Assembly (NCBI GenBank): GCA_048938295.1
Contig: JBHLMI010000002.1
Location: 30,001-62,000 of the forward strand
DNA from: Promethearchaeota archaeon
GTDB taxonomy: Archaea; Asgardarchaeota; Hermodarchaeia; Hermodarchaeales; Hermodarchaeaceae
Direction: 5' to 3'
DNA length: 32,000 nt
Shown: positions 8,397 through 13,272 of the stretch, piece after piece
Layout of the letters: the number at the start of each line of letters is the position of its first letter
Numbering within the stretch: the stretch's first letter is position 1
The notes under the pieces: generated by a model
What the model was told of the DNA's origin: nothing
The model's database searches: none
The model's input: the letters and a program-made list of their open reading frames with translations, nothing else
Translations under genes and position numbers: made by a program

Positions 8397-9812
8397 CTAT
8401 TCTGAGGGGCGTCGCAATATTTCTCCATATTCAACAAGTGCAGCCATTCCTCGGGCTCCACGGATGGGAAGATGATAGGATGGAACACCAGCTACTCGAA
8501 GTTTATGCATCCGTTCACGGATTTCCTTCGTTGAGGGAACCGAGACCACGATGACTGGTTTCTTGCGTTGCGTAGAGGCTTCAACAATCGCTTGACTCAC
8601 CTGTTCAGCATCAAGTAAGGGAGTCATGAAGAGGGGAATCACAATAAGCCCATCAATTTCATCACAATCCAAAAGTGTGTTCATTGAAAAAGCAAATTGC
8701 TCTGCAGTCGCTGATCCAGTCAGGTCAATGGGATTTCGGACCGAGTAGAAATAAGGCAACTTTGTATGAAGGCGTTTTTGTAAATCTTTTGAAAGCTCAG
8801 GGGCTTCAAGGTTAAAATCGGCCAATGCATCTAAGGTCATTACACCGAAACCTCCGCCGCTGGTAATAACGCCAATGCGCTTTCCCTTAGCCGATGGTTG
8901 GTTAGCGAGTGCACGTGCAACATCGAAAAATTCACCGATGGTTTTTACTCGAATGACGCCTGCAGTTTCAAAGGCGGCATCATAAATTCGGTCAGTACCA
9001 GCGAGGGAGCCAGTGTGGCTGGAAACGGCTCGTGTGCCGGCTTCACTGCGTCCAGCTTTGATGACAATGAAGGGTTTGATTTTCGAGGCGCGTTTACAGA
9101 TCTCGATGAATTTTCGCCCACGGTTGATGGATTCTAAATAAAGCCCGGTTACTTGAGTATCCTCATCATCTTCCAGGTAATCGATGAGGTCTCCTTCGTC
9201 GACGTCAATGGCGTTTCCAAAGCTAACGAATTTACTAAATCCTATTTTTTCGTTGCAGGCAAAACTCATCACCGAACCGCCGACAGACCCTGACTGAGAG
9301 AGAAATGATATTCGCCCAGTATCTGGTCGAGGTGTGGTACTTGCAGGAAGAAATAGCGTATCAATATGAGTACTAGGGCTAAAGGTGCCTAAGCAGTTGG
9401 GTCCAAGAATCCGTATATTCCCTTGTTTCGCTAGCTCAAGGACCTCATTTTCGAGCTTGACACCATCGGGTCCCGATTCGCGAAATCCCCCGGAAACGAT
9501 GATGACATTGGGGACCTTCTTCTCAACGCACTCCTTCATGGCCACTGGGACATATTTGGCAGGAATAACGATGACTGCTAAATCTACTGGCCCTCCACAG
9601 TCTTTAAGGGAGCCATAGGTTTTGATGCCAAGGATATGGTGACCTTCCTTGGCTGCCTTGGGATTGATCAGGTATAATCGTCCAGGGAATTTTGCAGCGA
9701 CCATTTGTTCGATGATGATATGACCGATGCGTCCTGGGCGTCGAGAAGCCCCAATGATTGCGACGCCTTTCGGATGAAAGAAGCGATCGATTTGTGTTTC
9801 AATTGATTCCAT
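8397..9812 (-). CDS. acdA: ADP-forming acetate/acyl-CoA synthetase, alpha subunit
   Basis: CoA-binding GAS...IG, GPNCLG, SQSGSVG, phospho-His SSHTGSLAG, NPIDLTG. No ATP-grasp (beta) domain. Confidence 0.9.
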   Translation of the reverse strand: MESIETQIDRFFHPKGVAIIGASRRPGRIGHIIIEQMVAAKFPGRLYLINPKAAKEGHHILGIKTYGSLKDCGGPVDLAVIVIPAKYVPVAMKECVEKKVPNVIIVSGGFRESGPDGVKLENEVLELAKQGNIRILGPNCLGTFSPSTHIDTLFLPASTTPRPDTGRISFLSQSGSVGGSVMSFACNEKIGFSKFVSFGNAIDVDEGDLIDYLEDDEDTQVTGLYLESINRGRKFIEICKRASKIKPFIVIKAGRSEAGTRAVSSHTGSLAGTDRIYDAAFETAGVIRVKTIGEFFDVARALANQPSAKGKRIGVITSGGGFGVMTLDALADFNLEAPELSKDLQKRLHTKLPYFYSVRNPIDLTGSATAEQFAFSMNTLLDCDEIDGLIVIPLFMTPLLDAEQVSQAIVEASTQRKKPVIVVSVPSTKEIRERMHKLRVAGVPSYHLPIRGARGMAALVEYGEILRRPSE

Positions 9813-9917: not shown

Positions 9918-11216
9918 TTAGATTTTTGCATTCTGACAAGAAACTAATTTCTTCATCGCTTTTACGATGAGAAAGTCGGGTACCATTTGATCATTGAGGT
10001 AAGCCTTTCTTGGGAATTGTTGAACCACTTCTTCAGAAGCTTTTGGTTCACTCACCTCAACAAGTGCGAAATTATTTCTTACTAGTTCATTGAGGTATGC
10101 GCTTATCGGTCTGATGAACTGAATCGTTGACAGAGTTTCGGTATAGAGCATCGGTCTTTCATCAAAGTAATCGATGACGACTTTCATTCGGTCTTCATTT
10201 CTTTGGCTATCTCCGGGAACCCTGATCGTGTTGCAAACAGGCCAACTGAATGCCGGATGGAGAATACTAAACACGAAGATACCGTTTTCCTTTAACACCT
10301 GGGATATCTGCTGGAGTGTCGTTTTGTAATCCTCGATATCCATTAACGCCATATTGCAAATTACTTTATCAAAAGAAGATTTGCCAAACTTGTCTGAAAT
10401 GTACTCAGCGTTGAGTTTCACATACCGAATGCCTAATTGTTCTTTTTCTTCTCGTTCAATGGCAAAATCAAGCATTCTGGAAATGTCAATTCCAGTGACT
10501 TTTGCTCCTTCTTTAGCTAGATAACGGGCTACGTTTCCTTCACCACAAGCAACATCTAAAATTATCTCATTTTTGTGTATATCAAGCAAGCGATATAATT
10601 CGGGCAAAATGATGTGTTTGTGATGGTAATCCCCGCCTTCACTAAATTGGGACGCCCAAGTGGGGGCCGCCTCATCCCATAGAGTACCGGGACTAATTTC
10701 GTCAAGCGATTCTAATCGTTTCCATTGCCCACTTCTTCCAAGCGAGAGAACCCTTTGACGCCCCCAAGCCTCATGGGGAAACTCTTGTGACGCAATCTCA
10801 TCGTTCGGGCTAGGCTTCCATATAGCAATATCTTCTTCTAGTTGAAGGGCTCCAACTTGAGAGGGATGGGTGCCATCGTATTCGGCGAAATCTAGTGCAG
10901 GATTTATATTCCCACAATTTGCACAAGGAATGGTGTAGTAGTAATTATAGATTAGGAATTCTTTTTTGACCATTCTTTCTTTAGCACAGGCTAGGCAGGT
11001 AAATGTCTCACAAGTTGAACACCAGGCAATTCCGTTAAAGTGTCTCAGTTTGCCACAGGTGTTGCATTCATACTTCCAGTGAAGGGAACACCTTGGAGTA
11101 AAGGAGCCTACATCATGGGATGCTTCGTTCAAAGGATATCCCTTAACCACGTGGGCGTATTGGGAACAGTAGAAACACGAAACACACTCTAAAGAAGTCA
11201 TAAGTAATGAAAACAA
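9918..11216 (-). CDS. Cys/His-rich multi-zinc-finger domain fused to a class I SAM-dependent methyltransferase
   Basis: N-terminal CVSCFYC, CSLH, CNTC, CSTC, CLAC, CANC. C-terminal motif I LDVACGEG, GIDIS, FDKVICNMALMDI, LKENGIFVFSILHP. The start may be ATG 11201. Confidence 0.85.
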   Translation of the reverse strand: MFSLLMTSLECVSCFYCSQYAHVVKGYPLNEASHDVGSFTPRCSLHWKYECNTCGKLRHFNGIAWCSTCETFTCLACAKERMVKKEFLIYNYYYTIPCANCGNINPALDFAEYDGTHPSQVGALQLEEDIAIWKPSPNDEIASQEFPHEAWGRQRVLSLGRSGQWKRLESLDEISPGTLWDEAAPTWASQFSEGGDYHHKHIILPELYRLLDIHKNEIILDVACGEGNVARYLAKEGAKVTGIDISRMLDFAIEREEKEQLGIRYVKLNAEYISDKFGKSSFDKVICNMALMDIEDYKTTLQQISQVLKENGIFVFSILHPAFSWPVCNTIRVPGDSQRNEDRMKVVIDYFDERPMLYTETLSTIQFIRPISAYLNELVRNNFALVEVSEPKASEEVVQQFPRKAYLNDQMVPDFLIVKAMKKLVSCQNAKI

Positions 11217-11279
11217 AGAAAGTATAAAAAAAGCCTGCTGCCTTCCTTCAAGATGTGATTAGGTTCTGGTGAATGCACT

Positions 11280-12582: not shown

Positions 12583-13272
12583 ATGTCAAAAAGAGCAATC
12601 GGTCGCGAGATGGACCGATACGAAATCGATCAACGAATCGTGGAAACCATCGTCCTGAAACCGAATGTGACCATCGATGGAATTGCCAAAGAAACTGGAT
12701 TAAGCTACACTGCCGTCCGCAACAGCCTTCAACGACTTCTTAATTTGGGTGTCGTCGTTGAAGCTGCTGACACAGAAAGGCAGGTACATCGGGGACGTCC
12801 TGCAACTTATTTCCGCATAGACAAAGGTTTACAGCTCTTCATTCCGCCTCGCCAGTTCAAACATCTCGCATTGACGCTAGTTAATCAAATGATGAAAGAA
12901 GAAGGCCCTGAGCATGTTGAAGGGCTTCTTGATCGAGCGGCAAAGCTTGAAGCAGAACGCCTTTCAATTGAATGGGAAAAGGAAAAAACTCAGCTAAAAA
13001 ATCTCAAACAGATAGTGCAAGCAATCTGTGACTACATTAACGAACAAGGGTGTTATGCTGAACCCAAACCTTTCGAAAATGGATTCTATGTTCATGTGAA
13101 CAATTGTGTCTATCATGGTGTATCCTCAAAATACCCTGGAACAATCTGTCGTTTCCATGAAAGCCTCATCACTCACTTAGCACATTATCATGACAAATCA
13201 CTCATCGTAATACACGAGCAAGCCATCGCAGAGGGAGCCCATAACTGCCGGTATATCATTTCTCGACGATAA
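12583..13272 (+). CDS. Winged-HTH transcriptional regulator with a Cys-containing C-terminal domain (SufR/V4R-like)
   Basis: HTH (IDGIAKETGLSYTAVRNSLQRL), wing RGRPATYF, C-terminal NNCVY...ICRFH...EGAHNCRY. Confidence 0.85.
   Translation: MSKRAIGREMDRYEIDQRIVETIVLKPNVTIDGIAKETGLSYTAVRNSLQRLLNLGVVVEAADTERQVHRGRPATYFRIDKGLQLFIPPRQFKHLALTLVNQMMKEEGPEHVEGLLDRAAKLEAERLSIEWEKEKTQLKNLKQIVQAICDYINEQGCYAEPKPFENGFYVHVNNCVYHGVSSKYPGTICRFHESLITHLAHYHDKSLIVIHEQAIAEGAHNCRYIISRR

Follow-up and report, generated by a model that had tools for sequence, protein, structure and literature searches.

A predicted three-zinc domain paired with a dedicated methyltransferase subfamily across Asgard archaea

The gene and its domains

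The window analyzed here is a stretch of 32,000 nucleotides from a Promethearchaeota archaeon (contig JBHLMI010000002.1), and the gene under study lies on its reverse strand, divergent from thiI. The product joins an N-terminal Cys/His-rich domain of 115 aa (N-domain) to a class I S-adenosylmethionine (SAM)-dependent methyltransferase (Table 1). A zinc module attached to a methyltransferase is a known kind of architecture; the module itself is an undescribed family for which no structural relative could be detected, and the new element is that it is obligately paired with a methyltransferase subfamily dedicated to it.

The open frame runs uninterrupted for 432 codons from a TTG (window 9918-11216), and residue numbers refer to this 432-residue frame (P0001). 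Because the methionine at residue 6 (ATG, window 11201) is the start in all 20 aligned homologues (20/20), the coding sequence is probably the shorter one given in Table 1. Public gene calls in the lineage begin at Met82, whereby the first 81 residues are lost, most zinc ligands among them; the public record of the window gene (P0031) has 351 aa, and the entries of many relatives, such as P0033-P0035 and P0142, have 346-358 aa. As a consequence of these calls, the N-domain is hidden in many databases. Moreover, Met82 lies within the zinc module, after C77 and before C98, so a start at this position would split the fold in two.

Table 1. Coordinates of the gene, its domains, and its candidate promoter element in the window.
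Feature	Residues	Window positions	Strand	Basis
Probable true coding sequence, 427 aa + stop		9918..11201	(-)	Open reading frame translation and homologue starts; TTG at 11216 is 5 codons further
N-terminal three-zinc domain (predicted), no named family	6-125	10842..11201	(-)	No family match; folds alone
Part ahead of the public start	6-82	10971..11201	(-)	Public records begin at Met82
Putative zinc site 1: knuckle, helix, then CxxH	C14/C17/C43/H46	11079..11177	(-)	Ligand conservation, 51 homologues
Putative cross-braced two-zinc module	Site 2 C51/C54/C74/C77; site 3 C66/C69/C98/C101	10914..11066	(-)	Ligand co-loss
Conserved connector, including N-terminal methyltransferase helices	126-200	10617..10841	(-)	Invariant residues, 21 homologues
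Class I SAM-binding Rossmann core	201-323	10248..10616	(-)	Pfam Methyltransf_11/_25/_31; 3g5l matches
C-terminal lid/substrate subdomain	324-432	9921..10247	(-)	Common to 3g5l and 3bkw (Y350, R369, Y374, E390, P391)
Fusion-specific lid insertion, PxDSxRNED	P334-D342	10191..10217	(-)	In fused proteins, gap in unfused relatives
TTTTTATA element, possible archaeal TATA box		11223..11230	(-)	Read in sequence, ~25 nt upstream of ATG

The initial annotation, made from the letters alone, had listed six metal knuckles in the N-terminal part (CFYC, CSLH, CNTC, CSTC, CLAC, and CANC), and all of them are present (C14xxC17, C43xxH46, C51xxC54, C66xxC69, C74xxC77, and C98xxC101). Together with the additional H59 and H117, they are invariant or almost so in 21 Asgard homologues. 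Also, C14, C43, H46, C51, C54, and C74 are invariant across 51 diverse homologues that are 26-52% identical to the query. As judged from these alignments, the conservation of the knuckles far exceeds chance.

The distribution of the ligands over the 51 sequences would define three zinc sites, a C3H site and a cross-braced pair, based on which ligands are present and which are lost together. At site 1, C14, C43, and H46 are found in 51/51 sequences and C17 in 50/51. At site 2, no sequence lacks C51, C54, or C74, and C77 is almost always present. The site 3 residues C98 and C101 are jointly present (as Cys or His) in 35/51 homologues and jointly absent in 15/51, and C69 is restricted to the 15 Asgard-type sequences. 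This suggests that site 3 (C66/C69/C98/C101) is optional in the family and complete in the Asgard clade. The count of about three zinc ions that the initial annotation had put forward agrees with this pattern of co-loss. A LIM-like sequential pairing of the eight cysteines was considered and rejected in favor of the cross-brace because C51, C54, C74, and C77 persist together where C98 and C101 are lost.

Predicted alone from the 51 homologues, the N-domain reaches a mean predicted local distance difference test score (pLDDT) of 96.2, which argues for a confident autonomous fold. A first full-length model from 21 sequences resolved the N-domain poorly (overall pLDDT 67), and the domain-only model was used in its place. 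The initial annotation had not recognized the architecture, and the N-domain has no match in Pfam, NCBIfam, PADLOC, or PHROGs, the PADLOC "mad2" match of the protein covering the generic SAM core only. A comparison with the sequences of the Protein Data Bank (PDB) returned noise only, at E ≥0.057 (a retroviral zinc knuckle, a LIM domain, and the ribosomal protein L43). The searches with the N-domain model gave a similar picture: no match below E 0.37 in the PDB by Foldseek, a best Z of 3.0 in a representative-wide VIA search (a small Saccharolobus 30S ribosomal protein), a template modeling score (TM) ≤0.42 in the ESM Atlas shape search, and values ≤0.87, to unnamed clusters only, in the Atlas feature search. 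The domain therefore belongs to no named family, let alone to one routinely fused to small-molecule methyltransferases, which the initial annotation had raised as an objection.

The initial annotation also described the fingers as joined to the methyltransferase by a linker. The join holds, but the region is not a mere linker, since residues ~118-200 carry many invariant residues. In the connector of ~75 aa, W133, P135, P147, G152, R155, W180, D181, W187, Y197, and H198 are invariant among the 21 homologues, the last five belonging to the N-terminal helices of the methyltransferase; W180 and W187 are retained in unfused relatives too, and residues 133-162 are modeled poorly.

Residues 213-320 are recognized by the Pfam models Methyltransf_11 (PF08241, 70.7 bits, cut-off 21.2), PF13847 (68.3 bits, cut-off 27), and PF13649 (65.3 bits, cut-off 27). 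D221, G225, and G227 of motif I and the acidic D244 are invariant in the 21 homologues, and G225 and G227 in 41. In class I methyltransferases, the acidic residue at the end of strand 2 binds the ribose of SAM. By these sequence marks, the methyltransferase half is intact, as had been proposed. In a Foldseek comparison of the full-length model, at least 500 chains of methyltransferases match at E ≤0.001, led by 3g5l (E 3e-16, TM 0.80 by target). Moreover, the family profile matches 3g5l (E 8e-19) and 3bkw (E 1e-12) in the PDB, with alignments that reach the C-terminus. The protein stays below the cut-off of every NCBIfam equivalog, CpaM scoring best with 65 bits versus a cut-off of 180.

Coupling of the domains and distribution of the fusion

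In the profile searches, the zinc domain stands out as a rare family without a name, nearly always joined to one methyltransferase subfamily, 33/38 long N-domain homologues carrying the same methyltransferase. The catalytic domain sets fused and unfused proteins sharply apart, with an identity to the query domain of at least 43% in the former and of 33-39% in unfused enzymes of ~250 aa. The PxDSxRxED insertion in the lid is present in every fused protein, Asgard or not, and is nearly invariant there; it is a gap in 7/7 aligned unfused relatives of ~250 aa. An insertion specific to the fused family implies that the two parts coevolved, although it says nothing on what they recognize, and the sequences suggest that zinc module, connector, and lid loop evolved together. 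The idea of the initial annotation that the finger array could be a module for substrate recognition is plausible.

Docking of the N-domain against the connector plus methyltransferase gives an interface score (ipSAE) of 0.36, the best control being 0.00, with a partner pLDDT of at least 88 and a contact agreement between runs of at least 86%. The mark is passed by 58/80 solved complexes and 2/110 mismatched pairs; in this comparison, which used self-made alignments, scores ≤0.60 include only seven of the 80 solved complexes, plus both passing mismatches. The model hints that the N-domain may dock onto the connector and methyltransferase.

A profile search with the N-domain, one of the checks proposed with the initial annotation together with structure prediction, was run exhaustively over 1.84 billion representative proteins and recovered only 89 cluster representatives at E ≤0.001; those whose origin was traced are all archaeal or bacterial. 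The conserved fusion is seen in 34 protein clusters, with E down to 6e-74 and all of ~420 aa. The fusion occurs at 37 independent loci, in metagenome-assembled genomes (MAGs) labeled Hermod-, Heimdall-, Thor-, and Promethearchaeota, and the N-domains are 57-82% identical between these groups. The window genome is of the Hermod type, its nearest locus (L023) being labeled Candidatus Hermodarchaeota. Among 400 Asgard genomes, 95 contain the family, ~85 of them strongly and some with two paralogues. The incidence differs by Asgard family, from near-universal (29/31 and 9/12) to rare (10/135). Outside Asgards, the family is rare as well: one MAG of Thermodesulfobacteriota and one of Methanobacteriota/Euryarchaeota contain it, as do unassigned contigs from metagenomes. 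The bacterial-type relatives are only 24-35% identical.

Other arrangements and irregular copies are also seen. In P0058 (676 aa, from a Thermodesulfobacteriota MAG), a single N-domain precedes two class I methyltransferase domains in tandem (~181-292 and ~464-567). Three homologues (P0057, P0059, and P0083) have the zinc domain fused to unrelated C-terminal regions of ~200 aa without family match, which indicates that the zinc module has been reused outside methyltransferases; P0057 is a bona fide 343-aa gene (L060:5001-6032) on a 200-kb contig, and a membrane helix is possible in P0083. Two of the 38 long homologues resemble frameshifted translations of high-GC DNA. Finally, two Asgard copies of the N-domain contain an in-frame stop (G392:C19:68051-68377, TAG; G009:C20:10157-10486, TGA), which could reflect decay or recoding.

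Gene neighborhood

In the window, thiI (TIGR00342, 314 bits, cut-off 264.5) begins 78 bp from the ATG of the methyltransferase gene, on the opposite strand. This divergent adjacency is found in the window and at L009, L015, L023, L024, and L026, all of which belong to the genus of the window or to closely related Hermod-type lineages, and it is retained in the same-genus genomes G094 and G103; thiI is not adjacent at more than 30 other loci examined. The spacer between both genes (window 11202-11279, 78 bp) contains a single A/T-rich element, TTTTTATA, which reads TATAAAAA on the opposite strand. Its distance to the ATG is the usual archaeal TATA-to-start distance, and because of this spacing, it is a possible TATA box of a leaderless methyltransferase transcript; it could serve thiI too. 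Directly after thiI is a helix-turn-helix regulator (window 12583-13272, forward strand) whose C-terminal Cys/His domain is MetOD1/SufR-like (SufR_cyano at E 2e-8, below cut-off), and the pairing of this gene with thiI is conserved in the same genus. Immediately downstream of the methyltransferase gene, on the same strand and after a gap of ~105 bp, is the gene for a 471-aa ADP-forming acetate-CoA ligase alpha-type subunit (window 8397-9812, reverse strand; TIGR02717 483 bits, below the cut-off of 567).

A different neighborhood is found at 22 Heimdall loci (within L027-L059), where a strongly conserved block of genes upstream on the same strand encodes ArsR, an ArsP_1-type permease, a thioredoxin (Thioredoxin_3), and a Ras/Roc-like protein of ~230 aa. 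The GTPase-like (Ras/Roc-like) gene is the direct upstream neighbor at several Heimdall loci, and a small methyltransferase or a protein without assigned function sometimes sits before the methyltransferase gene. On the convergent side are a RimI-like GNAT, exonuclease III (307 bits), and an MFS-GPH transporter. The permease scores best as an SO_0444-type Cu/Zn efflux protein (143.5 bits, below the cut-off of 300). Because the block mixes housekeeping and transport genes, its synteny suggests inheritance rather than a pathway.

The ArsR and ArsP_1-type genes made an arsenic role, with the gene as an arsenite methyltransferase (ArsM), a candidate to consider. It was rejected: the NCBIfam ArsM models score 27-33 bits versus cut-offs of 510-575, with matches confined to the generic SAM core, the permease is Cu/Zn-efflux-like, the GNAT is RimI-like, and the Exo_endo_phos neighbor is a plain exonuclease III.

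The non-Asgard gene context comprises six loci. In 4/6 of them, the neighbors of the gene encode radical-SAM/SPASM enzymes, DUF1848, and GT2 glycosyltransferases, and in 2/6, two radical-SAM/SPASM genes follow directly downstream of it. These radical-SAM/SPASM neighbors of the bacterial-type relatives give partial NCBIfam matches, mostly to peptide maturases. A conserved cassette shared by L022 (6001-11130) and the P0075 contig opens with the zinc-methyltransferase and a radical-SAM/SPASM gene. Another radical-SAM/SPASM-like gene, weakly similar to STM4011, comes next; it is followed by a creatininase-family gene or immediately by a GT2 gene, and then by a sulfotransferase; a 37-aa open reading frame lies just upstream on the P0075 contig. 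A peptide or glycoconjugate pathway is possible for this cassette. Also, on two unrelated non-Asgard contigs, DUF1848 proteins are encoded one to two genes downstream of the zinc-methyltransferase (L019:7432-8367, 312 bits; L020:7920-8858).

Substrate, rival readings, and known systems

Based on these data, we lean, with a confidence a little above even, toward an active SAM-dependent methyltransferase that belongs to a small family of its own and in which zinc module, connector, and lid select the substrate, a protein or peptide being favored. A class I catalytic domain of the 3g5l/3bkw type would carry a permanently attached N-terminal zinc module, and this module, the connector, and the PxDSxRNED lid loop would build a single substrate-selecting surface above the catalytic pocket. 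The substrate would most likely not be a nucleic acid; a protein or peptide would be preferred, with a small molecule as the main alternative. The preference for a protein or peptide arises because the domain is strongly constrained, the cross-brace analogues bind peptides, and the neighbors of the bacterial-type relatives resemble peptide maturases.

Several observations weigh against this preference. The zinc sites are assigned from covariation and not from coordinates or metal analysis, and the likeness of the N-domain to peptide-binding ZZ fingers, set out below, is too weak to show homology. The gene context differs by Asgard lineage, with thiI and acetyl-CoA synthetase in Hermod-type genomes, the block described above in Heimdall, and a different one again in Thor. 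Moreover, the same MFS-GPH transporter cluster is found near the gene at 21 Heimdall and Thor loci, which fits a small-molecule substrate equally, and the nearest characterized structural neighbors of the catalytic domain are small-molecule methyltransferases (RebM, MitM, AtmM, UbiG, ToxA, and SpnF).

The last two points belong to the rival that survives best, in which the enzyme would methylate a small molecule or metabolite, such as a cofactor, the head group of a lipid, or a natural product that is glycosylated or made by radical-SAM enzymes, and the zinc domain, instead of reading macromolecules, would serve as a structural cap or a redox- or metal-sensing regulator. This is possible, and we regard it as a serious but less likely alternative. 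The biosynthetic look of the non-Asgard loci agrees with it (GT2, two radical-SAM/SPASM, creatininase-family, sulfotransferase, FkbM methyltransferase, and DUF1848 genes), as does the acidity of the protein, which has an isoelectric point (pI) of 5.5 and a net charge of -12 in the window; the whole homologous proteins are mostly of pI 5.0-6.4 with net charges of -3 to -20, with one exception of pI 8.1. However, an autonomous domain of 115 aa with the identity observed across Asgard classes is under tighter constraint than a simple cap needs, and there is no biosynthetic cluster at the Asgard loci. The bacterial-type relatives are so distant that their substrate may differ, and the Heimdall synteny that includes the transporter may be merely inherited, its other members being housekeeping genes, for example, exonuclease III.

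A tRNA- or rRNA-modifying methyltransferase coupled to the divergent thiI, the role at which the initial annotation hinted from the short gap between both genes, is quite improbable. In eukaryotes, RNA methyltransferases do make use of zinc fingers, and the pairing with thiI is kept in the two same-genus genomes and the closest loci (L023, L024, and L026). Nevertheless, the adjacency is missing at every locus beyond this narrow clade, and since it is confined to the genus and its closest relatives, the tRNA reading loses its only support. Also, a Pfam scan detects no RNA-binding family in the protein, be it THUMP, PUA, S4, or another. Unlike most RNA methyltransferases, the protein is acidic, the N-domain included (pI 4.7-6.6 in Asgards, net charge -1 in the window). 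The sole tRNA methyltransferase in the PDB profile list, CmoM (8joz, E 7e-5), matches in the generic SAM core only. Finally, an artifact in which an assembly chimera or a frameshift joins two genes, a doubt raised with the initial annotation, can be set aside as exceedingly improbable: the public calls cut at Met82 could make the locus resemble two genes, but that residue falls inside the zinc module, the window has one uninterrupted frame, the fusion recurs at the 37 independent loci, and most of the matches listed from independent assemblies keep the same frame open, a few having a stop (G009 and G392) or short frames.

The structures closest to the catalytic half of the window protein are 3G5L (Listeria monocytogenes) and 3BKW (Mesorhizobium loti), both function-unassigned proteins of the Methyltransf_11 type. 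Their catalytic architecture agrees with that of the window protein over the whole length between the N-terminal helices and the C-terminal lid, and they share H320-P321, Y350, and R369 to Y374 with it, but both lack the zinc domain and the connector, and 3g5l does not conserve the PxDSxRNED lid insertion. Because their own substrates are not established, they allow no transfer of function, and a search of the literature on both structures and on Asgard zinc-finger methyltransferases found nothing relevant.

For the zinc module, the ZZ fingers (PF00569) are the recurrent structural analogue. Those of p300, p62, CBP, Ada2, Mib1, and Nbr1 recur in the best structural rows with Z of 2.0-2.5, below the homology level, with 43-53 residues aligned, the ZZ chains at the top having 46-51 residues aligned at a root-mean-square deviation of 3.1-3.5; their chains are covered nearly end to end (47/49 and 51/53 residues). 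ZZ fingers are small binuclear modules with four successive ligand pairs cross-braced as 1+3 and 2+4, an arrangement that the co-loss pattern of the window domain would fit. However, the Pfam ZZ model has no match in the 51 N-domains, nor to the window gene in a whole-genome scan, at E ≤10. The last ligand pair of ZZ fingers is usually a His pair, whereas in the window domain it is a CxxC; this domain also has a 20-residue β-hairpin inserted ahead of the last pair and an extra C3H site plus helix preceding the module. The solved ZZ fingers are peptide binders, and the entry titles of the p300 and p62 ZZ structures state bound peptides. Taken to its furthest, the comparison would make the N-domain an archaeal relative or analogue of a ZZ finger that reads protein N-termini or peptide tails, the enzyme the founder of a new family of protein or peptide (possibly N-terminal) methyltransferases across Asgards, and its bacterial cousins methyltransferases of radical-SAM-matured peptides; we regard this scenario as unlikely.

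The eight-ligand cross-brace spacing is shared as well with FYVE, PHD, RING, and B-box fingers, which appear only in non-significant structural rows (Foldseek E ≥0.37, Atlas TM ≤0.42) and without Pfam match. A FYVE identity was considered and rejected because the basic R(R/K)HHCR motif is missing, the C54-C66 interval reading GKLRHFNGIAW without HHCR, and no profile match is significant; the FYVE_2 model detects 5/51 N-domains only, at E ≥0.11, and the FYVE rows are no better than those of other cross-brace fingers.

In a wider context, methyltransferases guided by zinc fingers are a hallmark of protein and RNA regulation in eukaryotes, and Asgard archaea are the closest prokaryotic relatives of eukaryotes. 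A predicted three-zinc domain without a name that is locked to one methyltransferase subfamily across Asgards is a new domain family to be named and a clean biochemical target. If the substrate were a protein tail, the enzyme could be a precursor of reader-coupled methylation; if it were a metabolite, it would be an ordinary accessory-domain variant. In eukaryotes, PRMT3 (C2H2), ZCCHC4, and SMYD (MYND) are methyltransferases with zinc-finger targeting modules. They use other finger types and other catalytic families (PRMT, SET, and others), with no homology detected to the window protein, and the analogy is one of design only: in each case, as would hold for the Asgard enzyme, a zinc module for substrate selection is attached to a methyltransferase.

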